Assembly (NCBI GenBank): GCA_052246995.1
Contig: JBQPWD010000006.1
Location: forward strand, 32,001 to 96,000
From: Candidatus Bathyarchaeota archaeon
Lineage (GTDB): Archaea; Thermoproteota; Bathyarchaeia; Hecatellales; Hecatellaceae
Reading direction: 5' to 3'
DNA length: 64,000 nucleotides
Within the stretch, counting starts at the first letter, position 1; every line of letters starts with the position of its first letter. Positions 2,417 through 19,998 of the stretch are shown here, piece after piece. The translations under genes were made by a program, and so were the position numbers. The notes under the pieces were generated by a model. The model saw nothing but the letters and a program-made list of their open reading frames with translations, was not told the DNA's origin and did no database searches.

Positions 2417-3268
2417 TTGAAGTTTGGAATAGCTTTTTCAAACATGCAACGAGGTTTAATTGACAGACTTAAAATTTTAGATGATATTGTAATTGAAGCT
2501 GAGAAGCTTGAGTATGACTCTTTTTTTACAATGGACCATTACATGCTTCCATGGGGTAACGAAACCTTTGAAACATGGGTTTATTTATCCTACCTTGCAG
2601 GCAAAACGTCTAAAATTAGGCTTGGAACATGTGTTACACCCATACCTTTTAGACCTCCAGCCATACTTGCAAAGATGGTTTCAACTTTAGACATAATTTC
2701 AGGTGGAAGAGTTATTGTTGGAGTTGGTTTAGGATGGTATCAAGCTGAATTTGAAGCATACAGTAGCTGGGATTCTAATGTTGTAAGATTTGAGAAAACT
2801 AAAGAGGCTCTAGACATTATGAGTAAACTCTGGGTTGAGGAAAAGGTTAACTTTGAAGGAAAATATTATAGGGTTAAGGATGCTGTTCTTCAACCAAAAC
2901 CAATTCAAAAACCATACCCACCATTATGGTTTGGAGGAACAGGTAAAAAAATGCTTAAACTTACAGCTGAAAAGGGTAGTGGGCTGGTTAGTGTTGGACC
3001 AAGATGGGCTCCAAACTATGTAACAAGTGAGAATTACCATAAACTTACTGAAAAAGTTAAGAAAATTAGGGAAAAGATGGGGAAAACAAACGATTTTACA
3101 TTTGCATGTATCATGGCTCAACATGAAAACTTTAACGAGTTTGTAAAAGAAATCGAAGAATACAAAAAAGCAGGAATGAACTATCTTATTCTTGGGATAG
3201 TAAGAGTAAGGGATGGAGTAACCCTCCTTAAAAAATTTAGGGATGAAATTGTTTTAACAATCACATAA
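2417..3268 (+). CDS. LLM-class (luciferase-like) flavin/F420-dependent oxidoreductase
   Basis: DHY, TSKIRLGTCVT, RPPAILAKMVSTLDIISGGR, PKPIQKPYPPLWFGG. Confidence 0.9.
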   Translation: MKFGIAFSNMQRGLIDRLKILDDIVIEAEKLEYDSFFTMDHYMLPWGNETFETWVYLSYLAGKTSKIRLGTCVTPIPFRPPAILAKMVSTLDIISGGRVIVGVGLGWYQAEFEAYSSWDSNVVRFEKTKEALDIMSKLWVEEKVNFEGKYYRVKDAVLQPKPIQKPYPPLWFGGTGKKMLKLTAEKGSGLVSVGPRWAPNYVTSENYHKLTEKVKKIREKMGKTNDFTFACIMAQHENFNEFVKEIEEYKKAGMNYLILGIVRVRDGVTLLKKFRDEIVLTIT

Positions 3269-3472
3269 GAACTTCAACCTTCACTAGCTTTAATCATAAG
3301 CTTGTTAAACATTATTCACTACAACGTCAACCTTAACAGCTACTAGTAATGAAAAAACATGTTAAATTTAAGGCTAAGAGCTTTAAACTTAACTTTTCTC
3401 ATGAATTTTAGATAGTAACCATTTTTATCTCTTTTCACCTCAAACTTTGCTGTACCTTAAGGAAGGAGTATT

Positions 3473-3901
3473 ATGGCTAACAGCTTAAAGTTAGATAAGA
3501 AGTTAGAAAATCACACCAGTAAGAACTCAAATCCAGCAGCATCCTCAATCAACAAGCATGCATATATTAAAGATAAAAACACGCTTCTCCAACTCTCCTC
3601 AGATTACAGTAGAACGTTTAAATTGCTTCTTGAAACTCGTAAAAAAGTTGTATCCGTAAAAGAGATAACAGAAGAAAATGGATTAAACACAAGTAATAGT
3701 TGGCTTGTTAAAACCGGGCTTTTTCTTATTTTAGCAGTACCCGAACCGTTCATTAGCGACATTATTGGAGCAACTTTATTGTGTGTAGGAGCTTTTAAAG
3801 AAAAAGCAAATAGGAAAAGCTGCATAAAGGATTACTATCGCGAATTTCATGAAAACTTGCAGAATATTTTGAAACTTAAAAAAGAGATTGCAACCCTCTA
3901 A
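3473..3901 (+). CDS. Hypothetical protein with a central hydrophobic hairpin
   Basis: 142-aa ORF with SD-like GGAG upstream; hydrophobic segment GLFLILAVPEPFISDIIGATLLCVG. Confidence 0.6.
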   Translation: MANSLKLDKKLENHTSKNSNPAASSINKHAYIKDKNTLLQLSSDYSRTFKLLLETRKKVVSVKEITEENGLNTSNSWLVKTGLFLILAVPEPFISDIIGATLLCVGAFKEKANRKSCIKDYYREFHENLQNILKLKKEIATL

Positions 3902-4703: not shown

Positions 4704-5820
4704 TAGCTAAAAAATATTCTTCAACAACATCTTTAGCTTTTTCCCTTCTTTTTTGATGTTCCAGTAAAAATGCTCCAACCTTGTCAGCTAGTAAAGATTT
4801 ACACTCCCCACATAACATGCTGCCAGATTTACAACCACTCCAAATCCTCCTAATTTTACTATCATCCTCTTCAAAAAACCAGTAAAGATAATGGTATACG
4901 CTACAAATTTCAGGTGAACCTCCAAGTTTTTTCTGTTCCGCAACAGTTGGTTGACCTCCTGTAAACGCATTAAACACCTTTTTTCTAGCAACTTCAGGCG
5001 GGTCCACTACAAATATACATGTTTCAGGCTCTGAAGCGGACATTTTACCCTCCCTTCCAAGCCCTGGAAGAAACTTAGAATGTATTTGAGCAGGTTTATA
5101 GTATCCAAGTTTAGAGGCAACATCTCTGGCAACTCTCCAATAGGGATCTTGATCTATTGCTGCGGGAATTAAGCATGGAATGTTTTCTCCTGTTAATTCA
5201 GACTCTAAAAAGCAGGGCACGATTTGAATTGCCGGGAAAAATATTAAACCTATGTTTGTTGAATCCTCAAAACCAAAAACTGCACGAACAACTGAGAAGT
5301 TTATATGTTTAGCCACCTTGATAGCAAGCTTATACATTAAACCCATGTTTTTAATATTCGAAATTATCTTAGTTTTGTTCTTATCAAAACCTATTGCAAC
5401 AACATCTAAAGCATTATCATACATATAGCTTATTGAAGTTTCAACTTCAAAGTTGTGATGAATAAGAAATTTTTCGTCATCAGTCATTTGAAAGTAAAGC
5501 TTAGCATTAAAAGTATCTTGAAGATACTTTGTAAAAACCCATGGAAGTATATGTCCTATATGAACTGGACCTGAAGGCCCCCTACCAGTATAAAGAATGA
5601 ATTTTCCACCCGACATGTAAAAATTTAAAATCCAGTCAAAATCTCTATGACAGAAGAAGAAGTTTCTTCTTAAGAGAAAATGTAATTCTCCAGAGTACTT
5701 TTTAACCTTGTCTAAAATTTCCCCTACTAATGGTTGGGTACCAAACTTTTTTATAAGCTTCTCATAATCTACCTTACCAGAAACTTTCCATGGAGTTACA
5801 ACCATTTCCTCCTCTGCCAC
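4696..5820 (-). CDS. trpS: Tryptophan--tRNA ligase
   Basis: YTGRGPS, HIGH, AIDQDPYWR, KMSAS. Confidence 0.97.
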   Translation of the reverse strand: MAEEEMVVTPWKVSGKVDYEKLIKKFGTQPLVGEILDKVKKYSGELHFLLRRNFFFCHRDFDWILNFYMSGGKFILYTGRGPSGPVHIGHILPWVFTKYLQDTFNAKLYFQMTDDEKFLIHHNFEVETSISYMYDNALDVVAIGFDKNKTKIISNIKNMGLMYKLAIKVAKHINFSVVRAVFGFEDSTNIGLIFFPAIQIVPCFLESELTGENIPCLIPAAIDQDPYWRVARDVASKLGYYKPAQIHSKFLPGLGREGKMSASEPETCIFVVDPPEVARKKVFNAFTGGQPTVAEQKKLGGSPEICSVYHYLYWFFEEDDSKIRRIWSGCKSGSMLCGECKSLLADKVGAFLLEHQKRREKAKDVVEEYFLANV

Positions 5821-7440: not shown

Positions 7441-9147
7441 ATGCCAACCGTAAATATTTCATATAAGGATGTCTGCAGGCTGGTAGGTAGAAAGCTTAAA
7501 CTGGAAGCCCTAGAAAAGGTTTTGCCTTTAATTAAATGTGAAGTTAAATCTGTTACTGGCGAGTCTATAACTGTTGAGGTTAACTCTGACAGGCCTGATA
7601 TGTTTTCGGTTGAAGGAATTGCTAGAGTTTTTAAAGGATTTTTATCAATAGAAAAAGGTTGTCCTAGATATAAGGTTAAGAAAAGCAGTGTCACAATTAA
7701 TGTTGATGAAAAGGTTAAAAACGTCCGTCCATTTGTTGTTGGAGCCGTAATTAGAGATGTTAAGCTGGATGATGATGGATTTCAGCAGCTTATCCAGCTT
7801 CAAGAAAAACTTCATGAAACTATTGGTAGAGGACGAAGAAGGGTGGCTATTGGGGTACATAATTTTGATAAAATTAAGCCTCCAATAACTTATACAGCTA
7901 TCCCACCCGAGAAGATAGTGTTTACACCTTTAGATGGAGATAAACCCTTAACAGGAAGTGAAATTCTTGAAAAAACCTTTCAAGGTAGGAAGTATGGATA
8001 CATAATTGAAAAGTATTCTTGCTATCCTATACTTTTAGATGCTAAAAACATGGTTTTGTCAATGCCTCCAATAATAAACGCGGAGGATACAAAGGTTAAA
8101 CCTGAAACAAAAAAACTCTTTCTAGACATTACTGGATGGAGTTTTAATGCTGTAAACCAAGCTTTAAACATTCTTACTACAAGTCTTGCCGAACGTGGAG
8201 GAAAAATTGAAGGTGTTAAGGTTGTTTACCCTAGAGGCTATAAACCAAGAGTTTTTTGGGCTGGTGAGCTAAACCCAACCAGAATTAATGTAAGCCTAGA
8301 TTATATTAATGCCGTTTCAGGTTTGAATTTAAGTCTTAAAGATGCTGTTAAACTTGCTGAAAAATCACGCTTTGATGTTAAAGTTGAAAAAACCAAACTA
8401 AATTTAACAATTCCACCATACAGGTTTGATATTCTACATCCAGTAGATGTTGTTGAAGACTTGATAATAGCTTATGGGTATGATAAGGTTAAACCTGAAG
8501 AACCTAAAACATTTACAGTAGGAAAACTTATGCCTAAAACTTTATTCATGGATAAAGTTAGGGATTTAATGGTTGGCTTCGGTTTCCAAGAAATTGCAAA
8601 CTATGTTTTAACAAGTAAGGAAAACCAGATTTATAGGATGAACTTAAAAGATGAGGATGTAAAACTTATTGAACTTTTAAACCCTAAAACACTAGAATTT
8701 TCAGTTGTTCGCGGATGGCTTATTCCAGGACTCTTAATCTTTCTATCACACAACACGCATGTGGATTATCCACAAAAAATTTTTGAATGTATGGATGTTG
8801 TTGTGTTTGATGAAGAAGCTGAAACTAAAACCAGAAACGAGTTAAGAGTTGCAGCTGCAATCTGTAACTATAAGGTAAGCTATGAAGATATTCAATCCAT
8901 ACTTTACATGCTACTTAAAAACCTTAATATTAATGATTGGATTGTTGAGGAAACCACTCATCCAAGCTTTATTCCTGGAAGAGTGGCAAAAATAAAGTTT
9001 AATGGTGAAGATTTAGCAGTTTTAGGAGAAATTCATCCAAAGGTTCTTGAAAACATTAACTTACCAAATCCCGTTGCAGCTTTCGAGTTAAACTTGATGA
9101 AACCATTAAGCATATATTTAACCATGAATCAATCAACGTTTTACTAA
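7441..9147 (+). CDS. pheT: Phenylalanine--tRNA ligase beta subunit
   Basis: NSDRPDMFSVEGIAR, PPIIN, PPYRFDILHPVDVVED, GEIHP; follows pheS. Confidence 0.97.
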   Translation: MPTVNISYKDVCRLVGRKLKLEALEKVLPLIKCEVKSVTGESITVEVNSDRPDMFSVEGIARVFKGFLSIEKGCPRYKVKKSSVTINVDEKVKNVRPFVVGAVIRDVKLDDDGFQQLIQLQEKLHETIGRGRRRVAIGVHNFDKIKPPITYTAIPPEKIVFTPLDGDKPLTGSEILEKTFQGRKYGYIIEKYSCYPILLDAKNMVLSMPPIINAEDTKVKPETKKLFLDITGWSFNAVNQALNILTTSLAERGGKIEGVKVVYPRGYKPRVFWAGELNPTRINVSLDYINAVSGLNLSLKDAVKLAEKSRFDVKVEKTKLNLTIPPYRFDILHPVDVVEDLIIAYGYDKVKPEEPKTFTVGKLMPKTLFMDKVRDLMVGFGFQEIANYVLTSKENQIYRMNLKDEDVKLIELLNPKTLEFSVVRGWLIPGLLIFLSHNTHVDYPQKIFECMDVVVFDEEAETKTRNELRVAAAICNYKVSYEDIQSILYMLLKNLNINDWIVEETTHPSFIPGRVAKIKFNGEDLAVLGEIHPKVLENINLPNPVAAFELNLMKPLSIYLTMNQSTFY

Positions 9148-9223
9148 AAAACGTTTTTTAACTCAAAACTTGTGTAAACCTCCACGTTTAAGTTAAAATA
9201 TTAATTAACCAATAATTTTTTAT

Positions 9224-9351
9224 GCTGAAACCACCGTTCTCCAGAAACCCGCGGAGACGGTTCCAACCTAGTAAGCGTTCGTTCTTAAGGAACGCTATCG
9301 ATGAGGAAGGAAAAAACCCAGCCGTGGAACATGGAGGATGGTGGCAGCAAA
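9224..9351 (+). ncRNA. Putative H/ACA pseudouridylation guide RNA (target 23S U2586, E. coli numbering) enclosed in a BHB-closed stem
   Basis: GC-rich island in an AT-rich spacer. GCUG/CAGC helix flanked by AAA bulges; 13-bp stem 9231-9243/9332-9344 whose G-U pairs favour the + strand; lower stem CCGCGG/CCGUGG; ACA at 9329-9331; pocket strands GACGGUU and AACCCAGC complementary to the conserved 23S sequence GCUGGGUU-UA-GACCGUC; K-turn-like loop near the apex. Confidence 0.75.
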
Positions 9352-9359
9352 AAGTCAGC

Positions 9360-10283
9360 TTACACTATCAAGGATAAAAGGCCTCTTTGAAGGTGAAGTC
9401 TATTTTCAGCTTGAAACCATACAACAGACCATGGACCATCGATAACTTCATTAGTAACTTCCCTTCCGCGGTCAGCTGGTAAGCAATGCATGAAAAGACA
9501 ATCTTTTTTTGCGTACTTAAAAAGTTCAACAGTAACCTGGTACTTTGGTAGAAAGTCTTTAAGTCTTTTCTCCATTTCAGATTCAAAACCCATCGAAACA
9601 AACGTATCAGTATAGATTATGTCAGCATCCTTAACAGCATCCTCAGGTTCTGAAGTTAACTCTATTTTTGAACCTGAAGCTGTTGCAAATTCTTTAGCCA
9701 GTTTTAAAACTTCACTTTTAGGTTCATAACCTTTTGGACATGCAATGCTCATATCTAAACCAAATTTTGCACAACCTATAAGCAAAGACTGGCAAACGTT
9801 GTTTCCATCACCAATCCATGCAAGCTTTAAACCATTTAATCTACTCTTAATCTTGTAGATTGTTAGGAAGTCGGATAAGGCTTGACATGGGTGGTAAAGG
9901 TCTGATAAGGCATTAATAACTGGAATTGTAGTGCTTTCTGCAAGCTTAACAAGAGTTGCATGATTTTTAACTCTAGCAACTATACAGTTAACATAACGCT
10001 CAAGAGTTTTACCGGTATCATAAATAGTTTCACCTCTGCTAAGCTGGGATTCGCTCCAATTAAGTGTAATAGTATTTCCACCAAGCTGTTTAACAGCAAC
10101 CTCAAAAGAAACTCTTGTTCTTGTTGAAGGTTTCTCAAACAACAAAACAACAAATTTACCGGAGAGTTTTCTTGAAAATTTTTTAAGATTTTTCTCTATT
10201 CTTAAAGATTCCTTTAAAAATTCCCAAAGCTCTTCAACAGAAAAATCTGCTAATGTTAAAAAATCTCTACCTTTAAGATTCAA
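9360..10283 (-). CDS. argF: Ornithine carbamoyltransferase
   Basis: FEKPSTRTRVSF, HPCQ, GDGNNV, FMHCLP, QAENRLH. Confidence 0.96.
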   Translation of the reverse strand: MNLKGRDFLTLADFSVEELWEFLKESLRIEKNLKKFSRKLSGKFVVLLFEKPSTRTRVSFEVAVKQLGGNTITLNWSESQLSRGETIYDTGKTLERYVNCIVARVKNHATLVKLAESTTIPVINALSDLYHPCQALSDFLTIYKIKSRLNGLKLAWIGDGNNVCQSLLIGCAKFGLDMSIACPKGYEPKSEVLKLAKEFATASGSKIELTSEPEDAVKDADIIYTDTFVSMGFESEMEKRLKDFLPKYQVTVELFKYAKKDCLFMHCLPADRGREVTNEVIDGPWSVVWFQAENRLHLQRGLLSLIV

Positions 10284-10299
10284 GTTACTCTACCTAGAC

Positions 10300-11214
10300 C
10301 TAAAATTTACCAAGCAACTGATTAACAAAAATTTTAGGGTCAAAAGGTTGTAAATCTTCATACCCACTTCCAACACCAACAAAAATTATTGGCTTTTTTG
10401 TTATGTACGAGATTGATATAGCCGCTCCACCTTTAGCATCTGCATCCATCTTAGTTAAAATTGAAGCATCAATAGGAACATATCTATTAAATTCTTCAGC
10501 TTGAAAAACGGCATCATTCCCAGTTAAAGCATCACCTACAAAAATTACAAGGTCCGGTTTAACAACCCTAACAATTTTACGCATTTCCTCCATAAGGTTT
10601 ACATTTGTTTCCATTCTTCCAGCAGTATCAATAAGAACAACATTTATCCCTTTTGCTTCAGCATGAAAAACTGCATCAAAAGCTACAGACGCTGCATCAG
10701 AACCATAACTATGCTTAATCATTTTAACTCCAAGATTTTTAGCATGATATTCAAGCTGCTCTATTGCACCAGCCCTATAAGTATCGCTACAGGCAACAAC
10801 AACAGAAAAATTGTTATCCAGGAAAAATTTTGCAAGTTTAGCTAGAGTTGTTGTTTTTCCACTACCATTAATACCAACAAAAACTATTGTAAGTGGTTTT
10901 CTTTCCATTCTTTTTTTCTCAGCAAGTTTTAAAAGCTCAATTTTTTCTCCACCACACGTAAGAACTTCAATTAAAACGTTCCTAACTAAGTCTTCAACAA
11001 CCTTTTTCTTATTGTCAAATCTTTTAACCTTAATTTCGCTAATCTTTTTAGCTGTTTCATCGATAATTTTTTCTGCAACTTCGAATGCAACGTCGTTCTC
11101 GATAAGTGTTAGCTTAAACTCTTCAAGTAGTGGTTTAACATCCTCTTCTGAAAGGCTTGTTGTTGAAACTTTATCAATAAAAGAGTTTAAAGCCTTCTTA
11201 AGTTTTTCAAACAT
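10300..11214 (-). CDS. ftsY: Signal recognition particle receptor FtsY (NG domain only)
   Basis: GINGSGKTTT, DTYRAGA, DTAGR, TKMDADAKGG; start taken at MFEKLK. Confidence 0.95.
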   Translation of the reverse strand: MFEKLKKALNSFIDKVSTTSLSEEDVKPLLEEFKLTLIENDVAFEVAEKIIDETAKKISEIKVKRFDNKKKVVEDLVRNVLIEVLTCGGEKIELLKLAEKKRMERKPLTIVFVGINGSGKTTTLAKLAKFFLDNNFSVVVACSDTYRAGAIEQLEYHAKNLGVKMIKHSYGSDAASVAFDAVFHAEAKGINVVLIDTAGRMETNVNLMEEMRKIVRVVKPDLVIFVGDALTGNDAVFQAEEFNRYVPIDASILTKMDADAKGGAAISISYITKKPIIFVGVGSGYEDLQPFDPKIFVNQLLGKF

Positions 11215-11222
11215 ACAAAAAT

Positions 11223-11666
11223 TCACGCTTTTAAGGCGCCAGCAACTTTTTCAGCTTCTCTTCTTAAAATTTCCATTCTTTCCAGTACATTTGAAAGTTG
11301 TTGTTGAAGCGAACTTCTTACATTGTTAAGCTCATTTGCCCTACTTTCAAGGAAAGATACGGCATCTTTAGTAGACTTTTCAATTACAACACCACCGCCA
11401 ACACCAACAAGAACCCTTTCAACGTTGGAAATTTTTGCTATAACATAAGAATTTGCACCAGTAGGTATAAGAAGTTCATCACCAACCTTAAGTTTTTCAA
11501 GGTTTTGAATAGTTGTAGCAGCTATGCTAAGCTCTCTAAGCGCTGAATCCACGATTCCGATTCTAACCTGCAACTCATTACTAACGTTTTCAAGCATTCT
11601 AAGTTCAACAACAAGGTTTCTTAGCTTTTCTTCTACATCCTTTTCCTGACTATATTTTTCACTCAA
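11223..11666 (-). CDS. pfdA: Prefoldin alpha subunit
   Basis: Coiled coils flanking ELLIPTGA and VLVGVGGGVVIEK; conserved position upstream of ftsY. Confidence 0.92.
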   Translation of the reverse strand: MSEKYSQEKDVEEKLRNLVVELRMLENVSNELQVRIGIVDSALRELSIAATTIQNLEKLKVGDELLIPTGANSYVIAKISNVERVLVGVGGGVVIEKSTKDAVSFLESRANELNNVRSSLQQQLSNVLERMEILRREAEKVAGALKA

Positions 11667-11905
11667 CGAAGCTCAACTCCCGCAATCATACGTATAAGAG
11701 GATTCCTAGCTTCTGCAGGATTTATCTCCTCAACCTTAACAATTTTTATCTCATTCCTTTTAAGCTTATTCTTGCTACCAATATCGCTGTAAACTTTTTC
11801 TAAAGCTTCCTTCAAACTTAAACCCCGAACCTCTTTACTAAAAAATAAAACTTTAAAGTTAACTTTAGCCTTGCACACAACCCTAAACGTTTTAACCTCA
11901 CTCAT
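11663..11905 (-). CDS. rpl18a: 50S ribosomal protein L18Ae/LX (eL20)
   Basis: FSKEVRG...EKVYSDIGSKNKLKRNEIKI; conserved synteny with pfdA-ftsY; start at MSEVK. Confidence 0.9.
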   Translation of the reverse strand: MSEVKTFRVVCKAKVNFKVLFFSKEVRGLSLKEALEKVYSDIGSKNKLKRNEIKIVKVEEINPAEARNPLIRMIAGVELR

Positions 11906-11958
11906 CAAAGACAACCCCACAAAAAGTAGGAGCAACATCATTTAAAATTAATGTTAGC

Positions 11959-12316
11959 GCGGTGGGTCCTAAGGCTTGACGCTCATACTACACCAAACCC
12001 CTTCAATCCTTCTCACACCCGCACTCCCCTAAGCGTCAAGCGTCCAGGTTTAGGTTGCTCCTTCCGGAGAGGTAACATGGAATACCTCTTCTCCCGGGCC
12101 TAGCCAGGTTCACCTGGTTAGATGGTTACCCAACCCCTACAGGTTGAGCAACCATCTCCGCCGACCCTAGGGGACAGGTGTTCATGGAAGGTTTTGGAGG
12201 AGTTTGATGTAGCTGTATGCGCCTCACCTTAGCTTTCGGCCCGCCGTATAGGGGGTTTGCGGTCGAACCCTTACGGGTTCTCAGGGAACCCCTAGCTCCC
12301 CGCCTAGACCCACCGC
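11959..12316 (-). ncRNA. ffs: Archaeal SRP (7S) RNA, intron-containing
   Basis: Terminal helix GCGGUGGGUC/GACCCACCGC; Alu loops UAGGG/CCCUA complementary; helix 6 with GUAG loop; helix-8 SRP54-binding symmetric loop CUAGG...AGCAACC; long helix 5. Confidence 0.93.
12062..12090 (-). other. Putative 29-nt BHB intron in SRP RNA helix 8
   Basis: Bulges AGA and AAG; central helix CGGG/CCGG (3 Watson-Crick pairs plus G.G); 7-bp inner stem AGAGGUA/UACCUCU; excision gives CUAGG-CCC-GGGA-GGG-AGCAACC. Confidence 0.75.
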
Positions 12317-12366
12317 AAAAGAATATGGTATAGAAAGTTTAAGATAAATTTTCCTTTAACTTTTCA

Positions 12367-13461
12367 TTACATCTTGTTAAACTTTAACTTTTTTTCTAAC
12401 GTCTTTTTTAGTTTATCTATTGTTTTTACTGGCGTTGGGTTTATTTTGTTTATAACTGCAAGGTAGAAGCTTACATAATCGCCGATGTATGTTGTTGAAA
12501 GCATTTTTGAAAGTTTACTTTTACCTTTGCCGTAAACCTCGAAAACTTTCTCTGTTTTTTCTTTCAAAATTTCCTTTAAGATTTCTATTCTAACTTTAAT
12601 CTCTAAAGGTTCATCGTTATCTCTTAAAAGTATAACTGAAAGAAAGTTTAAAAGGGGAGGTTTAATGTTTTCCCAACCTACAACCTCGTTATGGTTTAAT
12701 TCTGGAAGAATATCGTGTTTACAGAATACCTTACTGTTTTCGTTTATCTGAGTTTTCCACCTGTAAGCTACACTACTAAGCCATCTAAATCCGTAAATTA
12801 CTGGAAGCTTGTCTTTAAGGTTTAAAGCTAAAATTTTAGCTTCATTATGGTGTAGAGGTGTTGAGGGTTTTAAATCTTCATAAAGGCTTCTTAAAACATT
12901 TAATGCTTCCATGAATTCACTTCTAAACCCCTTAACTAACCCAAGCTTTTCCAGAATTAATGCTGGCGGTATAAAAAGGTAGGGTAAGGCAAGTCTGGGT
13001 TGAAAACCTGAAGGAACTTTAATATGTTTAACATTAAACCTTAAACAGTATTCTTCAAGTAGCCCACCTGAGCTTAAACCGATAATTGTGCAACCCTTTT
13101 TTGATGCTAAGGAAAAGCTATTCAAGGTTTCTTGAGTATTGCCAGAATAGCTTATGGCGAAAACAAGAGATTTGCTGCCTAAGTACCCTGGAATTATAGA
13201 GTCTCTGCAAACTTCCATGGATAAAGTAGCCTCCTCATAACACCAATCTTTTAAAAGGCTTCCACCAATAGAGGAGCCTCCCATGCCAAGGAATACAACA
13301 TTTAAAAAATCCTTGTTTTTAAGCCACTCCACATCAAAATTTTCAGCCAGCCTAAAAGCATCTTCATAGTAGTTGGGAGTAGATTTTAAGGCATCAGCCA
13401 TCCTAAAGCTATCAATTGTAGAAATAAGCTCAATATTATCTAAGTCATCTTTTAAAGACAA
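12367..13461 (-). CDS. Bifunctional phosphoglucose/phosphomannose isomerase
   Basis: GMGGSSIGG, SYSGNTQET, QPRLAL, RWKTQINENSK, PELNHNE. Confidence 0.93.
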   Translation of the reverse strand: MSLKDDLDNIELISTIDSFRMADALKSTPNYYEDAFRLAENFDVEWLKNKDFLNVVFLGMGGSSIGGSLLKDWCYEEATLSMEVCRDSIIPGYLGSKSLVFAISYSGNTQETLNSFSLASKKGCTIIGLSSGGLLEEYCLRFNVKHIKVPSGFQPRLALPYLFIPPALILEKLGLVKGFRSEFMEALNVLRSLYEDLKPSTPLHHNEAKILALNLKDKLPVIYGFRWLSSVAYRWKTQINENSKVFCKHDILPELNHNEVVGWENIKPPLLNFLSVILLRDNDEPLEIKVRIEILKEILKEKTEKVFEVYGKGKSKLSKMLSTTYIGDYVSFYLAVINKINPTPVKTIDKLKKTLEKKLKFNKM

Positions 13462-13638
13462 AAGTTGTCACCATAACAGTTTTTACTTCAAGTAAGTAGA
13501 ATCTATACTCAATTTATAAGGTTAAGTTCTGAAAGCGGTTAAAGTTGAATCTTCCACTAAATGTTTAACTTATCAATTTTCTGGATTTGAATTTAAGCAT
13601 AATCTTTTAGTTTAAGTTTATGTTTAGATTAATCCCTA

Positions 13639-14526
13639 TTGAAAATGTTCCCAGTAAATCCTCCTAAAAGAAAAACGTCAATAATTGTTGCAATTCCTGC
13701 ATCAACAACCGCAGATGTACCACATTTACGTGAAAAAACGTTTAAAACAGGCTTTATTGGAAGAGTATTAGCAATTTTTAGGGTTGAGGAAGTTTTGATT
13801 TACAAAGATAAGGATAATAATGAAGATGTAAGGTATAATCAAGAGCTTAAGCTTATTGGAGAAATTTTAAGCTACATGGCAACACCCCAATACCTAAGGA
13901 AAAGAGTTTTTAAAGTTTCACCTAATCTTCTGTATGCAGGAATTCTTCCACCGTTAAGAACACCAGACCATCCACTAAAAAAAGGGTTGGATAAAGTTTT
14001 GAATGGTGAGGTTAGAAAGGGGTTGGTAATTAAATCTTTTAGGGAAAATTCGATTATTGACGTTGGGCTTGATAAGCCTGTAGAGGTTGAAGGGAAATTT
14101 AAGCTTGGAACAATTTTAAATGTCAAACTTTTTAAGGTTAATGGTAAGGTGAAGGGGAAGGTTATTTCTTTAGAGGAAGTAAAAGCCTACTGGGGTTTCA
14201 AGGTTAAAGCTCTAAATAAGACATTGGATGAAGTTGTTAAATCTGAGAAATTTGACCTTAAAATTGCAACTTCAAGATATGGAGAACAGCTATCCTCCAT
14301 TGTCAATATAATTGTTGACAGGTGGATTAAGTCTAAGAGGGTTCTTTTAGCTTTTGGTTCACCAACAGAAGGGTTAAGAGAAATAGTTGAGCGTAGAGGA
14401 TTTAAACTTGAAGAGCTATTTGATTTTACAGTTAACACCATACCCAATCAAGGAGTTGAAACCGTAAGAGTTGAGGAGGCTTTAGCTTCAACCTTAGCAT
14501 TATTTAACTACCTAGTTAATGATTAA
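13639..14526 (+). CDS. SPOUT-family RNA methyltransferase (DUF171/COG2106, SPOUT1-like)
   Basis: TPQYLRK, GILPPLRTPDH, FGSP, NTIPNQGVETVRVEEA. Confidence 0.9.
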   Translation: MKMFPVNPPKRKTSIIVAIPASTTADVPHLREKTFKTGFIGRVLAIFRVEEVLIYKDKDNNEDVRYNQELKLIGEILSYMATPQYLRKRVFKVSPNLLYAGILPPLRTPDHPLKKGLDKVLNGEVRKGLVIKSFRENSIIDVGLDKPVEVEGKFKLGTILNVKLFKVNGKVKGKVISLEEVKAYWGFKVKALNKTLDEVVKSEKFDLKIATSRYGEQLSSIVNIIVDRWIKSKRVLLAFGSPTEGLREIVERRGFKLEELFDFTVNTIPNQGVETVRVEEALASTLALFNYLVND

Positions 14527-14551
14527 AGTTTAGTTGTGGAGGATTTAATTC

Positions 14552-15166
14552 TTGGTTAGAGGTGTTTTAATAGCTATTGAAGGGATAGACGGGGCTGGAA
14601 AAACAACCCAAGCATATATGCTTGTTGAGAGGCTTAGAAGTATAGGGTTAAAAGCTGAATACACAATGGAGCCAACTTATGGGCGTATAGGAGATATTTT
14701 AAGACTACATGTGTCAAGGATGAGGCGTAGAGAACCTATTTACGAAGCCCTTCTTTATGCCGCTGACAGGTTTGAACATGTAAAATTTTTTATTAAACCT
14801 AAATTGAGAAATGGGTGTATAGTGGTTTCAGATAGGTACTTATACTCTAACATAGCTTACCAAGGAGCTGCTGGTGTAGATGAAGAATGGATTAGAAAAT
14901 TAAATTTTTTTGCACCAAAACCAGATTTGACAATATACATTGACATTAAACCTAGGGAAGGGTTAAAAAGAAAGAAAGGTGAAAAAAGTGTTTTTGAAAA
15001 GTTGGAGTATGAGGAGAAAGTGAGAAAAATTTACTTAAAAATTGCTAAAAGTGAGAAGTTTATCATTGTTGATGGTGTAAAAGACGTTAAGGCGGTTCAT
15101 GAAGAAATTTTCAGGAATGTCTGCAAACTTTTAAGGAAAAAAGGTTTTAGTGTCCAACAATTTTGA
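14552..15166 (+). CDS. tmk: Thymidylate kinase
   Basis: EGIDGAGKTT, LLYAADR, SDRYLYSNIAYQG, PDLTIYID. Confidence 0.95.
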   Translation: MVRGVLIAIEGIDGAGKTTQAYMLVERLRSIGLKAEYTMEPTYGRIGDILRLHVSRMRRREPIYEALLYAADRFEHVKFFIKPKLRNGCIVVSDRYLYSNIAYQGAAGVDEEWIRKLNFFAPKPDLTIYIDIKPREGLKRKKGEKSVFEKLEYEEKVRKIYLKIAKSEKFIIVDGVKDVKAVHEEIFRNVCKLLRKKGFSVQQF

Positions 15167-15686
15167 CAATTCTTAAAGGTTTAAAACCTTCCACCTTTAA
15201 CCTCTTATTTATAGTTTGAATAAGCTTCTTTATTAGAATGTCAAGCGGAATCTTTCTTGTACCCTTAAAATGGTTAATAAGAATCTTAAATTTATTATGC
15301 TCTTCAAACATGAATCTTACATAGTAAAAGTCTGACCAAAGAGAAATTTCCTTTTCACCTTTCTTATACTTGTAAAGTGTACGGACAAGGAAATCTATAT
15401 TTTTAACAGAATCCCTTTTAACATACTCCTTAAACTTTTCAACCTCATCTTTACCTAAAAAAATGAAAGTTGTGCCTTCAGCAATACCAACCTCAAATAT
15501 ACATTTTGAGCGGGGTGTTGGAGTTAAAATTTTTGGAGTTAAAGTTTCTATGCACCCGTTTAATTCTTTAAAAGCTTCAACTATAAGGATTTGAAGCTTC
15601 TCTAATGGAATTTTATACTCCACCTGCGAAAAAGCTTGAACAATGTTTGGAAATACTTCAAAGTTTCCAAACATTGGATTCTTCAA
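15147..15686 (-). CDS. Conserved hypothetical protein
   Basis: 179-aa ORF with genome-typical codon usage; FEVGIAEG and DFYYVRFMF segments. Confidence 0.6.
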   Translation of the reverse strand: MKNPMFGNFEVFPNIVQAFSQVEYKIPLEKLQILIVEAFKELNGCIETLTPKILTPTPRSKCIFEVGIAEGTTFIFLGKDEVEKFKEYVKRDSVKNIDFLVRTLYKYKKGEKEISLWSDFYYVRFMFEEHNKFKILINHFKGTRKIPLDILIKKLIQTINKRLKVEGFKPLRIVKIVGH

Positions 15687-15731
15687 CCTTAAATATTACT
15701 GGAAAAGTTACTAATATATGGTTTTCAGGTA

Positions 15732-17990
15732 ATGGTGGATTATTTTACTCATCCATTAATTAAGAAAAACTGTGTAGAAAGCAGGCAGTACCAGCAAAAC
15801 ATTGTTAAAACATGCCTTAAAGGCAATACGCTTGTTGTCTTACCTACAGGTTTAGGTAAGACGTTAATAGCCGCAATTCTAACAGCCGAAAGACTTTTAA
15901 GGTTTTCCTGGGGAAGGTGTTTTATTCTTGCACCCACAAAACCGCTCATACTTCAACACTACCAAGTTTTTAAAGATGTTTTAAACCTTGAAACAAAGTA
16001 CTTCACCATGTTTACAGGTGAAACTTCCCCGTCAAGAAGGGTTTTAGGGGAAGCTAAAGTAGTTTTTATGACACCGCAAATTCTGGAAAACGACATTATT
16101 ACTGGAAGGATAAAACTTGAAGATGTTGTACTCCTAGTTTTTGATGAAGCTCACAGAGCTGTTGGAAACTATCCCTATGTTTTTATAGCAGACATTTACA
16201 TGAAAACAAGTAAAAATCCACTGATATTAGGTTTAACGGCATCTCCAGGTTCATCTATTGAAAGAGTTGAGGAAGTTAAAAGAAACCTTAAAATATCTTT
16301 TATTGAAGCAAGAACTGAAACTAGTCCAGACGTAAAACCCTATGTTAAGCCTATTAAAGTTGAGTGGGTTGAAGTTAAACTTGATGAAACTCTTGAAAAA
16401 ATTAAGATAAACCTTGAAAGTTACATTAAAGATAAGATTAAAACCTTTCATAAAGAAAATTTGCTTGAGAAGACAAGGTATAAGCTAACATTTAAAAAGT
16501 TTTGTGAAATTAGAGATAAATTTAGAAAACAAATTTCTGAACAACCTAAACCGCCTGAAAACCTTAAACATCTACTTTTAGATTTAATGTGTGTAAGATA
16601 CGCTTCCCAAGCTTTAAATTTGCTTGAAACTCAAGGTTTAACAGCATTAAAAAACTTTCTTTTAAGAGTTGAGGAAAAATCTAGAAGAAGCGGATTTTCT
16701 TCAGCAAAGGAGTTTATTTTGGATGGTAGAATACAAGACATATTAAATCTTAGCGTTATTTATGAGGATGTTGGTTTAGAGCATCCTAAGCTTGCCAAGC
16801 TTAAAGATGTTATTCTAAGGGAAATTTCCACTGGAGCTAGGAGAATAATAGTTTTTACAAATTACAGGGAAACAGCAAAAAAGCTTGTAGAAACATTTAA
16901 CGATGTTGAATGTGTAAAAGCTGTTAGGCTTGTAGGTCAACTTAATAAGCCATATGATTCAGGTTTAACCCAAAAAGAGCAGGCTGAAATACTTTCAAGC
17001 TTTAAAGATGGAAAGTATAATGTTTTAATTGCAACCCAAATTGGTGAGGAAGGAATTGACATATCTTCATCTGATGTTGTTGTTTTTTATGATAATGTTC
17101 CAAGCGCTGTAAGATTTATTCAAAGAAGGGGGAGAACTGGAAGAAGCGCTCCTGGAAAGGTTGTTATTCTTGTAACTAAGGGTACAATGGATGCCGTGTA
17201 CTACTATCTAGCTAAAAGGAGAGAAAAGGTTATGAGGGATATTGTAGGAAGAATTCAGGTTAAGAGTTTTCAAGATTTAGGACAACAAAATATTGAAAAA
17301 TTTGTTTTGGAGGAAAAAAGCATGAGGTATGGTGCAGAAGCAAATAAAAACTTACTAATCATTGTTGATAGTAGAGAAAGGAATTCTTCCGTTATTAAGG
17401 AGCTTATCAAGTTTGGGGTAAATGTTAAAGTTGAGAATCTTACAATAGGAGACTATGTTTTATCTGATAAAGTTGCTGTTGAAAGAAAAACAGCTCAGGA
17501 TTTTGCATCATCAATAATTGATAAAAGACTTTTTTTTCAAGCAAAAAGCCTAATTTCAACTTATAAAAAACCGTTAATTGTAATTGAAGGTGAAGATTTG
17601 TATACAGCTTCAAATATAAATGCAAATGCTATTAGGGGAGCCATTTTAAGCCTTTTAATGGATTACGGAATACCAATAATCTTAACAAAAAACCCGTCAG
17701 AAACAGCATTCTTCCTACTATTGATAGCTGAGAAGGAACAGGTTGAAAGGGCCTCCTATCCTTCAATTCGTGGAGAAAGGAAGCCTTTAAGTTTAGCTGA
17801 ACAACAAGAATATGTTGTTGCAAGCCTACCTAACGTTGAATTAACTTTGGCAAGGAGGCTTCTAAAAAGATTTGGGTCAGTTGAAGGTGTTTTTAATGCT
17901 TCAAAAGATGAGTTAAAAAATGTTCCAGGTATAGGGGATGTTATTGCTGAAAAAATTAGAAAAGTTATAACTGAAAAGTATACTGGATAA
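15732..17990 (+). CDS. hef: Hef: DEAH helicase fused to ERCC4/XPF nuclease and HhH domain
   Basis: LPTGLGKT, DEAHR, LTASPG, QRRGRTGR, VDSRE, GDY...VERK, C-terminal VPGIG. Confidence 0.95.
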   Translation: MVDYFTHPLIKKNCVESRQYQQNIVKTCLKGNTLVVLPTGLGKTLIAAILTAERLLRFSWGRCFILAPTKPLILQHYQVFKDVLNLETKYFTMFTGETSPSRRVLGEAKVVFMTPQILENDIITGRIKLEDVVLLVFDEAHRAVGNYPYVFIADIYMKTSKNPLILGLTASPGSSIERVEEVKRNLKISFIEARTETSPDVKPYVKPIKVEWVEVKLDETLEKIKINLESYIKDKIKTFHKENLLEKTRYKLTFKKFCEIRDKFRKQISEQPKPPENLKHLLLDLMCVRYASQALNLLETQGLTALKNFLLRVEEKSRRSGFSSAKEFILDGRIQDILNLSVIYEDVGLEHPKLAKLKDVILREISTGARRIIVFTNYRETAKKLVETFNDVECVKAVRLVGQLNKPYDSGLTQKEQAEILSSFKDGKYNVLIATQIGEEGIDISSSDVVVFYDNVPSAVRFIQRRGRTGRSAPGKVVILVTKGTMDAVYYYLAKRREKVMRDIVGRIQVKSFQDLGQQNIEKFVLEEKSMRYGAEANKNLLIIVDSRERNSSVIKELIKFGVNVKVENLTIGDYVLSDKVAVERKTAQDFASSIIDKRLFFQAKSLISTYKKPLIVIEGEDLYTASNINANAIRGAILSLLMDYGIPIILTKNPSETAFFLLLIAEKEQVERASYPSIRGERKPLSLAEQQEYVVASLPNVELTLARRLLKRFGSVEGVFNASKDELKNVPGIGDVIAEKIRKVITEKYTG

Positions 17991-18202
17991 AAACCAGTTC
18001 ACACCTAAAACAGCAAAAAATGCTAAAGTAGCTACTTTAATATTTTTAATGCTTTGGCATTTTGATGTCAAACAGTCAAAGTTTTTATTTTCTCATATTT
18101 TTACAGGCTTACCAGTTTTCTTAAAAGTCTTAAAATCTTAATTTCTAAACCATTTTATTTTAGCTTTCCAGCGGCTTTTTAACATGGTTTTTAAATTCCG
18201 GG

Positions 18203-18547
18203 TTAATCTCCAATCTTCTTAATCTTTTTAAGGGCTTCTAAAGTGCTAATTGTTAAGTCTAGAAGGATTTTAAGGTTGTTTAAATCCTTCTCCTCCCTAA
18301 TTTTTTGCTCTAATTGTTGAAGCTTAACCACCAATGATTCCTCAAGTCTTATGAGAGTTGATGGAAGATTTGCCCTTAAAGCTTCCTCGTCGGATTTTAC
18401 AATAACAACTTTCCTGTCACAGGTAAAGCAGTATATTTCCTCTGATGGAAGCTTAAAAAGTGGAGAGCTACATTGAGGGCAGGATTGGTTAAGCATTGTT
18501 GCACCAGTTTTAAGGGCTTCAGCCATCCTTTTAATGTTCCTATCCAA
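18203..18547 (-). CDS. UPF0148 / Sjogren's-scleroderma autoantigen-1-like zinc-ribbon protein
   Basis: MAEALKTGATML..SCPQCSSPLF...YCFTC. Confidence 0.85.
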   Translation of the reverse strand: MDRNIKRMAEALKTGATMLNQSCPQCSSPLFKLPSEEIYCFTCDRKVVIVKSDEEALRANLPSTLIRLEESLVVKLQQLEQKIREEKDLNNLKILLDLTISTLEALKKIKKIGD

Positions 18548-18679
18548 CTTTTCACCACTAAAACTTATTTATAAAGTTAATATAAGATTTTTAATGTAAG
18601 GTAGTTAGTACCGGACAGGTTATAAGCTAATAACTTATGAGATTATCCTATATTTAGGTTATTCCTGTTAAAACCATAC

Positions 18680-18976
18680 TTGGTGGTGGTTATCTTGTCT
18701 AAACGTAAACGTAAAGCAGAAATTTATGAACAAACCATAGGTCAGGCTTTAACCATACTTAAAGACATCTCTGAGGATACAACAACCCCAAGAAACATTA
18801 GAAGGGTTGCAAAAACTGCAATGGATACTCTTCAAGATACCTCAAAAACTTATGGTGTTAGGTCTGCAAACGTTATTTCCATGCTTGATGAAATTTCTCA
18901 AGATCCAAACATGCCCCCCTATACAAGAACAAAAATTTGGAATGTAGTAAGCTTGCTTGAAACAATAAAAGATTAA
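18680..18976 (+). CDS. UPF0147 family protein
   Basis: DTTTPRNIRR, LDEISQDPNMPPYTRTKIWNVVSLLE. Confidence 0.9.
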   Translation: MVVVILSKRKRKAEIYEQTIGQALTILKDISEDTTTPRNIRRVAKTAMDTLQDTSKTYGVRSANVISMLDEISQDPNMPPYTRTKIWNVVSLLETIKD

Positions 18977-18980
18977 TTTT

Positions 18981-19793
18981 TTAGGATTTAAAAAGCTTAA
19001 AAACTTTTTCTAAAAGATTAGGGTTTGCCGCTGAAACAACCGTTGTACGTCTTGTAGGTAGGTCTGCGGGTATATCAAGTTCTTTACCATCACCATCAAC
19101 AATCAATCCTCCTGCCTCCTTAAGAATAAGGTATGCTGCCGCCAAATCAACAACCCTAACTCTACCTTTAAGGTCTACATGCACATCTATCATTCCAGCA
19201 GCTATATAGCAAACTTCAAGAGAAACTGCTCCAAGACGTCGTAGATGGTTTGAATTTTTAGCTATTTTTAAGCTTTTTTCTAAGGCTTCACCAGATGGGG
19301 GGATATCAACAGATATAATTGCATTCTTAAAATCTTCAACACTTGAGGGTTTAATTCTTTTACCATTTAACCATGAACCCTTACCTTTTTCAGCATAAAA
19401 AAGTTTACCACTTGAAACCTCAAGAACAACAGCAGCATAAACTGATGAGAGAGTAGGTTTTTCAGCTACAGCTAAAGAAACAGCATAAAACGGTATTCCA
19501 CGTAAAAAATTGTTTGTACCGTCAAGACCATCAACAAGAACATATGCTTCAGGAGGTTTTTCATCAAAAATTTTTATAACACCGTTCTCTTCACCAACAA
19601 AAACACAAGGTTTACCGTAATTTTTCAGCAACCTTATAACAGTTTCCTCGGCAACAACATCAACATACCTAGATTCGTCTCCACCAGCACCAACACCAAT
19701 AACCTTGAAAGCCCTCTCAGAACCAGATAAAAGCTTAATTTCTTCAGCAACTTTTAATGAAACATTCTTCAAAAATTCTAAACCTATACTCAT
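18981..19793 (-). CDS. suhB: Inositol monophosphatase / FBPase family protein
   Basis: GEE, DGLDGTNN, RRLGA, DLAAA motifs. Confidence 0.88.
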   Translation of the reverse strand: MSIGLEFLKNVSLKVAEEIKLLSGSERAFKVIGVGAGGDESRYVDVVAEETVIRLLKNYGKPCVFVGEENGVIKIFDEKPPEAYVLVDGLDGTNNFLRGIPFYAVSLAVAEKPTLSSVYAAVVLEVSSGKLFYAEKGKGSWLNGKRIKPSSVEDFKNAIISVDIPPSGEALEKSLKIAKNSNHLRRLGAVSLEVCYIAAGMIDVHVDLKGRVRVVDLAAAYLILKEAGGLIVDGDGKELDIPADLPTRRTTVVSAANPNLLEKVFKLFKS

Positions 19794-19879
19794 GGTAAAC
19801 CAGTCCCAACAACAAGTTTAAGAACTACTATAAACAAAGTATTCTAAAGAGAAAAAATTTTTCTAAAAAAGTGAAGTAC

Positions 19880-19998
19880 GCGGGGGTCGCCAAGCCTGGT
19901 CAAAGGCGCAGGAGCCTATAAGAAGAAGCTTGTAGGCGGCGAAAATGAGGATCCTGTCCCGTAGGGGTTCGTGGGTTCAAATCCCACCCCCCGCACCA
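19880..19998 (+). tRNA. tRNA-Leu(GAG) with 31-nt intron at position 30/31 (19913-19943); CCA encoded
   Basis: Acceptor GCGGGGG/CCCCCGC, D-loop AAGCCUGGUCAAA, long variable arm CCCGUAGGGG, T-arm GUGGG-UUCAAAU-CCCAC; anticodon 19947-19949 after splicing. Confidence 0.92.

Follow-up and report, generated by a model that had tools for sequence, protein, structure and literature searches.

Introduction

A study by Plagens et al. (2015, eLife, PMC4731332) determined that the gene for the signal recognition particle (SRP) RNA of Thermoproteus tenax is permuted and that its termini lie at the tip of helix 8. As set out in the sections of that paper drawn on here, the leader and the trailer of the precursor form a motif of the bulge-helix-bulge (BHB) type that is cleaved by a heteromeric endonuclease, and ligation of the ends restores the loop. 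The same sections describe a 23-nt leader and a TTAATA box for the T. tenax gene, report that the SRP RNA of T. uzoniensis is also permuted and circularised, and propose an ancestor with a simple BHB intron. In this work, we examine a window of 64,000 nucleotides from Candidatus Bathyarchaeota archaeon (assembly GCA_052246995.1, contig JBQPWD010000006.1, here C6:32001-96000), in which a colinear SRP RNA gene is interrupted by a predicted 29-nt BHB-type intron at the same bond. We also examine two other RNA genes of the window, a tRNA-Leu(GAG) gene and an H/ACA guide RNA gene, and compare all three with their relatives.

The genome studied (G000) comprises 1.53 Mb in 17 contigs with a G+C content of ~36%, and sequencing runs tagged as hot springs metagenome contain the stretch of the window. 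An earlier note on this DNA had proposed that three RNAs of unrelated classes within 11 kb, namely an H/ACA-like guide, the SRP RNA and tRNA-Leu, each carry a BHB motif. All three RNAs exist where they were placed, and the motif holds in relaxed form for the SRP RNA and the tRNA-Leu, whereas the outer helix required for the H/ACA guide is at the level of shuffled sequences. We consider it probable that the SRP RNA and tRNA-Leu genes contain BHB introns and that the H/ACA RNA is a linear guide that is not a BHB substrate.

The SRP RNA Gene and its Proposed Intron

The window was searched with Rfam at gathering thresholds, and an SRP RNA gene was placed on the minus strand at 11960-12315 (RF01857, 163.7 bits against a cut-off of 96.5, model positions 1-317). 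It is the single SRP RNA match in the genome and encodes a pre-RNA of 356 nt, in which the Rfam alignment leaves 31 letters unaligned within the loop of helix 8. The gene was then compared with 25 full-length relatives, drawn from 29 matches in 31 genomes with three partial matches excluded. In this alignment, exon 1 (12091-12315, minus strand) ends in ...AGGCCCGGGAG, which supplies the 5' strand of helix 8, the GGGA tetraloop and the first closing G. The 29-nt insert (12062-12090, minus strand, AAGAGG...CCGGAA) lies at the tip of helix 8, and exon 2 (11960-12061, minus strand) begins with GGAGCAACC and provides the strand of helix 8 that binds SRP54. The relatives read AGGCCCGGGAGGGAGCA at the helix 8 tip as opposed to AGGCCCGGGAG, the 29-nt insert and GGAGCA in G000, and excision of the insert results in CCCGGGAG|GGAGCA, which is the consensus of the intron-free relatives. 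Endonucleases acting on BHB motifs cut after the second bulge base on both strands, and cuts placed by this rule on each strand of the insert yield the same mature consensus, CCCGGGAG|GGAGCA. The cis intron claimed for this gene is upheld to that extent, and we infer the cleavage itself.

The insert is predicted to fold as a relaxed, non-textbook BHB with a 7-bp inner hairpin, a central CGGG/CCGG helix containing one G.G mismatch, and the 3' bulge AAG. An alternative pairing gives a central CCGG/CCGG helix with a 4-nt 5' bulge. In the congener G001, an insert of 30 nt interrupts the same bond and forms a strict BHB (CGGG/CCCG, bulges AGA and AAG, and a 7-bp inner hairpin), and this frame appears in the unconstrained minimum-energy fold. 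A single substitution in G000, CCCG to CCGG, therefore results in either the G.G mismatch or the 4-nt bulge and accounts for the relaxed motif. The introns of G000 and G001 are identical at 17 of 30 positions and the exons at 312 of 327, and the inner helix is preserved via compensatory changes. The 5' domain of the SRP RNA also contains an additional hairpin of 23 nt, which was considered and rejected as an intron; it is present in nearly all of the aligned relatives and is a feature of the lineage.

The genome encodes two PF01974 paralogues of EndA. The first is a catalytic (alpha) protein of 183 amino acids whose match to the long EndA models is in their catalytic half, and the second aligns to the structural half of EndA models and weakly to beta-subunit models. 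RtcB is encoded by an uninterrupted gene (601.6 bits). A heteromeric endonuclease of alpha and beta subunits accepts relaxed, non-canonical BHB substrates, according to the sections of PMC4731332 cited above. These components suggest a route of maturation in which the SRP pre-RNA would be transcribed with the 29-nt insert, a longer hairpin taking the place of the GGGA tetraloop of helix 8. The exon sequence CGGG would pair with the final CCGG or CCCG of the intron, so that the bond G|A on the 5' side and the bond A|G on the 3' side fall in two bulges that are four pairs apart. The heteromeric endonuclease, composed of catalytic alpha and structural beta subunits, would cut the precursor at both bulges, and RtcB would ligate the exons to CCCGGGAG-GGAGCA with the tetraloop and closing pairs found in the intron-free relatives. 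Since the genome has a sole SRP RNA match, assembly of the SRP would depend on the tRNA-splicing enzymes, and the unspliced SRP RNA would presumably be non-functional.

The SRP RNA gene is the first of a series on the minus strand (10303-12315) and is followed by genes for L18Ae/LX, a prefoldin subunit, and a 308-aa SRP54-type GTPase that resembles FtsY. The gene for the RNA of the particle and that for its FtsY-like receptor are neighbours.

SRP RNA Inserts in Related Genomes

A class-level sample and a phylum-level sample of 151 genomes each were searched for SRP RNA, which was matched in 134 and 144 of them, respectively. The tip of helix 8 was inspected in 66 genes of the class sample (the 26 aligned genes, the 20 longest others, and 20 with a length of 320-323 nt) and in 20 genes of the phylum sample from other classes; none of the 68 SRP genes of the class sample outside this inspection exceeds 319 nt. 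Inserts at the same bond of helix 8 occur in eight of the 66 genes and in two of the 20, so that at least 10 genomes in six families carry one, with lengths of 15-101 nt. The inserts are 29 and 30 nt long in G000 and G001 (family f1), 17 nt in G017 (f5), 18 nt in G029 (f15) and 60 nt in G060 (f11). The members of genus g29 (family f14) have inserts of 101, 101 and 91 nt (G067, G038 and G043), and two genomes of family f53, which belongs to another class of the phylum, have inserts of 15 nt each (G255 and G227).

All 10 of the inserts open with ...CGGGAG|A. Their 3' ends read CCCGAA|G in six genes, CCCGAA|A in G029, CCGGAA|G in G000, CCCGAU|G in G017 and CUCGAA|G in G255. The inserts are otherwise unrelated in length and sequence, apart from a few end bases that are shared by some. 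The BHB frame is strict in G001 and was read likewise in the other eight intron-bearing genes beside that of G000, and each of the 10 intron-bearing genomes has one SRP RNA match. The presence of the insert varies within a genus, as G060 has it and its congeners G030 and G105 do not. A full-text literature search, which was thin on subscription journals, returned no paper on a cis BHB intron in an SRP RNA gene.

The introns of genus g29 (loci L075-L077) are 91-101 nt long and well structured, with folding energies of -43 to -56 kcal/mol when the flanks are included. They might carry a small RNA of their own and are candidates in this respect.

Permuted SRP RNA Genes

In genus g108, which belongs to the same phylum, none of the five nearly complete genomes has a standard SRP RNA match. 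A permissive search of three of these genomes (G195, G265 and G272; loci L146, L147 and L148) uncovered permuted SRP RNA genes. Their GGAGCA start stands right behind a leader that ends in CCCCGAA or CCCCGAC, and their 3' end reads ...GGTCCGGGAG (...CCGGGAG). Judged by these termini, the permuted genes appear to be processed at the very bond that is interrupted by the cis intron in G000. The leader of G195 measures 23 nt and is preceded 26 nt upstream by a TTAATA box, in agreement with the published description of Thermoproteus.

The leaders of the permuted genes resemble a decayed tail of exon 1 joined to an intron of 12-13 nt (12 nt in G195). The leader of G195 is AGGCCCGAGAG-GCCGACCCCGAA, and its first 17 bases, AGGCCCGAGAG-GCCGAC, match the 3' end and trailer of the same gene, AGGTCCGGGAG-GCCGAC, at 15 of 17 positions by hand count. 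This resemblance between a leader and the gene's own 3' end and trailer suggests that the permutation arose via tandem duplication of an intron-bearing gene. Genus g15 was considered as a second permuted lineage and rejected: six of its seven genomes lack an SRP RNA match, and among the five that were tested, three have pieces of the gene at or near contig ends, which looks like an assembly gap, and two have no match.

Tandem SRP RNA genes were observed in G077, where contig C44 carries two of them on the same strand and 1.3 kb apart (3279-3591 and 4913-5230; 165.9 and 119.5 bits). This is the kind of arrangement that could yield a permuted gene.

The gene of G000 has the same host RNA, the same bond at the helix 8 tip, and the same combination of a BHB motif (relaxed in G000), a heteromeric endonuclease and RtcB as that of Thermoproteus. 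Unlike in Thermoproteus, the gene is colinear, the BHB flanks a cis intron, and the product is expected to be linear with normal ends. The G000 gene thereby has the form of the ancestor with a simple BHB intron, which the sections of PMC4731332 used here treat as hypothetical. A broader proposal would be that the permuted circular SRP RNA of Thermoproteus descends directly from the helix 8 tip intron via tandem duplication, that the intron or its site is old or recurrent in the Thermoproteota and beyond, and that SRP biogenesis is obligatorily coupled to EndA and RtcB. We advance this joint proposal tentatively and place its chances somewhat short of even.

The tRNA-Leu(GAG) Intron

Default ARAGORN was run on the window and made one call, a tRNA-Pro, which is also the only further Rfam match in the window beside the SRP RNA. 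Both searches missed a tRNA-Leu(GAG) gene with an encoded CCA on the plus strand at 19880-19998 (C6:51880-51998), which is found with the intron search of ARAGORN (aragorn -i) and by comparison with orthologues. The gene contains a 31-nt non-canonical intron at 19914-19944 (plus strand), between positions 31 and 32 of the tRNA, that starts at gene position 35 (aragorn i(35,31)). One shared A makes the cut ambiguous, and the alternative is 19913-19943 between positions 30 and 31.

The borders of the intron are confirmed by intron-free orthologues, in agreement with the intron claimed for this gene. The orthologue of G007 is identical over the splice junction ...GGCGCAGGA|ATGAGGATCCTG..., and the exon halves abut in the further orthologues of G011, G009, G008, G003, G002 and G004. 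In G001, the intron is 33 nt long with the same ends and a hairpin that is preserved by compensatory changes. The motif is a relaxed BHB in which the central CGCA/GGCG helix has three of four pairs, the bulges are GG|A and AA|A, and the inner helix is GCCUAU/GUAGGC. The tRNA-Leu(GAG) would mature in the same way as the SRP RNA, by removal of the 31-nt intron after position 31.

Across the 1.53 Mb of the genome, aragorn -i places an intron in 16 of 44 tRNA genes, and four of these introns lie 5' of the anticodon; a number of the 44 calls seem erroneous, among them a 'Pyl' tRNA and a tRNA with an intron of 741 nt. A scan for T-arm and acceptor sequences uncovered two more tRNA-like genes that aragorn -i had missed, both with a CAT anticodon and D-arm inserts and both on the minus strand (C4:121265-121356 and C7:2882-2993). 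In one of the two, the D-arm contains an insert of ~18 nt; in the other, both the D-arm and the region 5' of the anticodon loop carry an insert. Sugahara in 2008 and Fujishima in 2010 reportedly described non-canonical tRNA introns in Thermoproteota with an (alpha-beta)2 endonuclease. The tRNA-Leu intron resembles these as it lies outside position 37/38, has a relaxed BHB, and occurs in a genome with many intron-bearing tRNAs, and it is ordinary for such lineages and for this genome.

The H/ACA Guide RNA

A 125-nt RNA on the plus strand at 9224-9348 has the features of the archaeal H/ACA guides that form ribonucleoproteins with Cbf5, Nop10, Gar1 and L7Ae: a single hairpin, a lower stem, a pocket, a kink-turn (K-turn), an ACA box and a spacing of 14 nt. 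The fold of 9224-9348 has a z-score of -5.9, and none of 200 shuffled sequences folds as well. Homologues occur in seven other genomes from four genera of the family, and in the consensus structure of the eight sequences 13 of 35 pairs show a compensatory change. The H/ACA hairpin proper (9249-9331) has a lower stem formed by CCGCGG (9249-9254) and CCGTGG (9322-9327). The 5' guide GACGGTT (9256-9262) and the 3' guide AAACCCAG (9314-9321), whose CCCAG core is invariant in all eight sequences, form the strands of the pocket. The K-turn strand ATCGATGAGG (9297-9306) has a GATGA core that is likewise invariant (8/8), and the opposite strand, read by eye, ends in GA in five of the eight and in UA in G000 and G001. 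The ACA box (9329-9331) stands one base past the lower stem, and CCGTGG-N-ACA is the same in all eight sequences.

The guides GACGGUU and AACCCAG are complementary to CUGGGUU-UA-GACCGUC in the organism's own 23S rRNA (gene position 3071), and 14 nt separate the ACA box from the pair adjoining the target U. The predicted target for pseudouridylation is the third U of GGGUUUAG in the peptidyl-transferase loop, which we take to be the equivalent of E. coli U2586. The 23S site equivalent to E. coli U2586 is pseudouridylated in haloarchaea, in which the guide is known. Cbf5, Nop10 and Gar1 are encoded in the G000 genome.

The RNA differs from archaeal H/ACA guides in that its ACA box is within an internal loop, since its 5' and 3' ends are joined by a closing stem of 16 bp that contains a conserved 3-nt bulge. 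The 5' strand of this stem (9224-9242) consists of GCTG (9224-9227), the bulge AAA (9228-9230) and CCACCGTTCTCC (9231-9242) and pairs with 9333-9348. The stem thus includes a helix of 11-12 bp with several compensatory pairs, the conserved bulge (AAA in six and AAU in two of the eight sequences), and a 4-bp terminal helix that covaries from GCUG/CAGC to GCCG/CGGC. A scan of the genome with the pattern of this closing module resulted in 11 matches, the sole GC-rich one of which is 9224-9348 itself, which makes the module unique in the genome.

The earlier note had read this RNA as a circle excised at a BHB. A circle could form if EndA cut the RNA at the AAA bulge and the purine-rich tail, which together would constitute a half-BHB (a bulge-helix-loop), and RtcB joined the ends. 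The 4-bp helix and the 3-nt bulge behind it on the 5' strand are arranged with the polarity of a BHB, the bulge is conserved, the three bases behind the 3' strand of the helix are always purines, and heteromeric endonucleases tolerate relaxed motifs in the description given by PMC4731332. A second bulge would have to be enclosed by an outer helix formed by the flanks of 9224-9348. The flanks pair in 47.5% of cells, as compared with 47.7% in shuffled sequences, and 317 of 500 shuffles reach a value as high. No pairing between the flanks is shown by RNAalifold, and slid registers pair equally well. A conserved promoter-like box (AAAAAGCTTAA in G006, G009 and G011) lies upstream of the terminal helix and has its start 36-38 nt from it. 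Archaeal TATA boxes lie at a typical distance from the start of transcription, and the spacing observed here corresponds to that distance, which suggests that the transcript starts at the 4-bp helix or a few bases before it and leaves no 5' leader. These observations, together with the uniqueness of the closing module, make excision of a circle unlikely. The RNA at 9224-9348 is, on the evidence of its conserved sequence and predicted structure, most readily described as an ordinary linear H/ACA guide whose ends are kept together by a closing stem of 16 bp that has one conserved bulge.

Transcript Data and the Processing of the SRP RNA

The transcript data are assembled contigs from Logan, as distinct from raw reads. 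Two runs that are labelled metatranscriptomic (X1 and X2) show an even cover of 98% and 97% of words and were treated as DNA. In the RNA-Seq run X8, which belongs to another study, a 172-letter contig with a depth of 1533 matches 12091-12259 over 169 letters with zero differences, and the match stops exactly at the predicted last base of exon 1 (12091). The break fits a spliced RNA that runs into sequence common to other organisms and is a weak hint of splicing. X8 has no RNA cover over the H/ACA region. Other joints listed for the contigs (9815/10753, 11299/16490 and 18804/18887) have short sides and were ignored. Joints at 19909-19960 in the tRNA-Leu gene were rejected as splice junctions since they also occur, with other letters, in the DNA-like runs and represent intron-free Leu genes of other organisms.

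Several observations count against the assignments made here. The SRP BHB of G000 is imperfect, with a G.G mismatch or a 4-nt bulge depending on the pairing. Its outer helix has 1-2 Watson-Crick pairs and is followed by the non-canonical loop of helix 8, and the tRNA-Leu BHB is without an outer helix. The bin that contains exon 2 (11669-12035) has a depth of 0.46 in X8, and the X8 contig has three unaligned letters at an unspecified end, which by the usual convention lies beyond 12091. The joint 12091/12061 is not among the joints listed for the contigs, and a spliced junction was seen for none of the three RNAs in these assembled contigs. Runs X1-X3 carry the insert colinear with the window, that is, unspliced; these runs are DNA-like and may be the source sample, in which case they are not independent. 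The pseudouridine target of the H/ACA guide was predicted by eye, and Rfam at E <= 10 over 9000-9600 returned chance-level matches and no H/ACA family. Finally, the conserved AAA bulge of the closing stem has no explanation if the guide is linear.

The 29-nt insert might also remain in the mature SRP RNA as a lineage-specific extension of helix 8. The insert does prolong helix 8 as a hairpin, and both the imperfect BHB of G000 and the lack of a junction read in the contigs would agree with its retention. It would, however, destroy the GNAR-type tetraloop that is kept by all of the other inspected SRP RNAs (76 of 86), and this tetraloop makes strictly conserved tertiary contacts for SRP19, as stated in the cited sections of PMC4731332. 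The inserts of the 10 genes range from 15 to 101 nt and vary in sequence, yet all 10 keep a bulge-helix-bulge frame. They are gained or lost within a genus (present in G060, and absent from G030 and G105), and the bond that they interrupt is a proven endonuclease site in Thermoproteus, as described in the same sections. Retention of the insert is very unlikely in view of these data, and excision by the tRNA-splicing enzymes is the preferred reading.

Further BHB Substrates in the Genome

The expectation in the earlier note that more BHB substrates exist genome-wide is borne out by introns in the 23S rRNA and cbf5 genes and by the two tRNA-like genes with D-arm inserts. The 23S rRNA gene lies outside the window (C5:189101-192517, L070) and is 3417 nt long as compared with 2987 for the model. 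It contains a 359-nt intron without a long open reading frame at gene position 1934/1935, and the genes of G002, G003 and G015 join query positions 1934 and 2293. The BHB of this intron is strict, with the helices UGUU/AACA and UAAU/GUUA and the bulges AAA and AGA. The 23S gene of G003 has an insert of its own, ~784 nt in length, elsewhere (query position 2417).

A cbf5 pre-mRNA intron is known from Desulfurococcales and Sulfolobales, in which it interrupts the codon of the catalytic Asp (Yokobori et al. 2009, PMC2738675). The portion of that paper used here gives no cbf5 introns for Thermoproteales, two ammonia oxidisers, and Korarchaeum. The cbf5 gene of G000 also lies outside the window (C2:208822-209796, L136, minus strand; Cbf5 model positions 5-321) and has an in-frame TAG. 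A 21-nt insert splits GGTL|D|PAVTG after the first letter and before the second letter of the catalytic Asp codon, which is the identical codon position to that described in PMC2738675. The G000 genome differs from the hosts named in that portion of the paper, which does not cover the later literature, in that it belongs to another class. The junctions of the insert are CTTG|AAAC...GGGAA|ATCCC and form a strict BHB with a 13-bp outer helix, a central CUCU/AGGG helix, and the bulges UGA and AAA. In the class-level sample, cbf5 is matched in 137 of 151 genomes, and 16 of the full-length matches have one or two in-frame stops. About 68 matches (hand count) begin only at model position 64-71, and all four of those inspected have a 17-26-nt insert at the Asp codon.

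The RNase P RNA, which had been named as a possible further substrate, is 304 nt long and has no space for a sizeable insert, and the same is true of the 16S rRNA (1500 nt). The RNase P RNA gene (C5:192640-192943, L094) follows the 23S gene on the same strand at a distance of 122 nt and is possibly co-transcribed with the rRNA operon. A scan of the genome for GC islands (60-nt windows with a GC fraction of at least 0.55) that might contain new BHB RNAs produced 543 islands, and it was dropped as too unspecific.

The earlier note had also concluded that EndA and RtcB act as a general maturation system for non-coding RNA that gates rRNA modification. This is largely right as regards the 23S rRNA and cbf5, and does not extend to the guide RNA; rRNA modification, if gated by splicing, is gated through cbf5 and not through the guide.

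The proximity of the three RNAs within 11 kb has no evident meaning, with introns in 16 of the 44 tRNA genes genome-wide, and the clustering is probably due to chance. A functional island of splicing-dependent RNAs co-located for co-regulation is extremely improbable despite the short distance, since the H/ACA RNA is not a BHB substrate, the three genes lie on different strands with unrelated genes between them (for a carbamoyltransferase, FtsY, prefoldin, a sugar isomerase, an RNA methyltransferase, thymidylate kinase and a helicase-nuclease), introns are frequent among the tRNA genes of the genome, and the BHB introns of the 23S rRNA and cbf5 are on other contigs.

Significance

The intron of the SRP RNA is the valuable part of these results, owing to its recurrence at one bond and the identity of that bond with the processing site of Thermoproteus. 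SRP RNA is universal and essential, and the permuted gene of Thermoproteus had been its sole known tie to the tRNA-splicing machinery. At least 10 genomes of six families carry a plain cis intron at the same bond, and this intron represents the intermediate that Plagens et al. could only hypothesise in the sections considered here, and the origin of permutation in an RNA gene becomes testable. The introns also bear on annotation, as the SRP RNA, tRNA and cbf5 genes of these lineages are easily mis-called or receive low scores. With splicing of the SRP RNA inferred, translation, protein targeting and rRNA modification would all lie downstream of one endonuclease-ligase pair in this one small genome.

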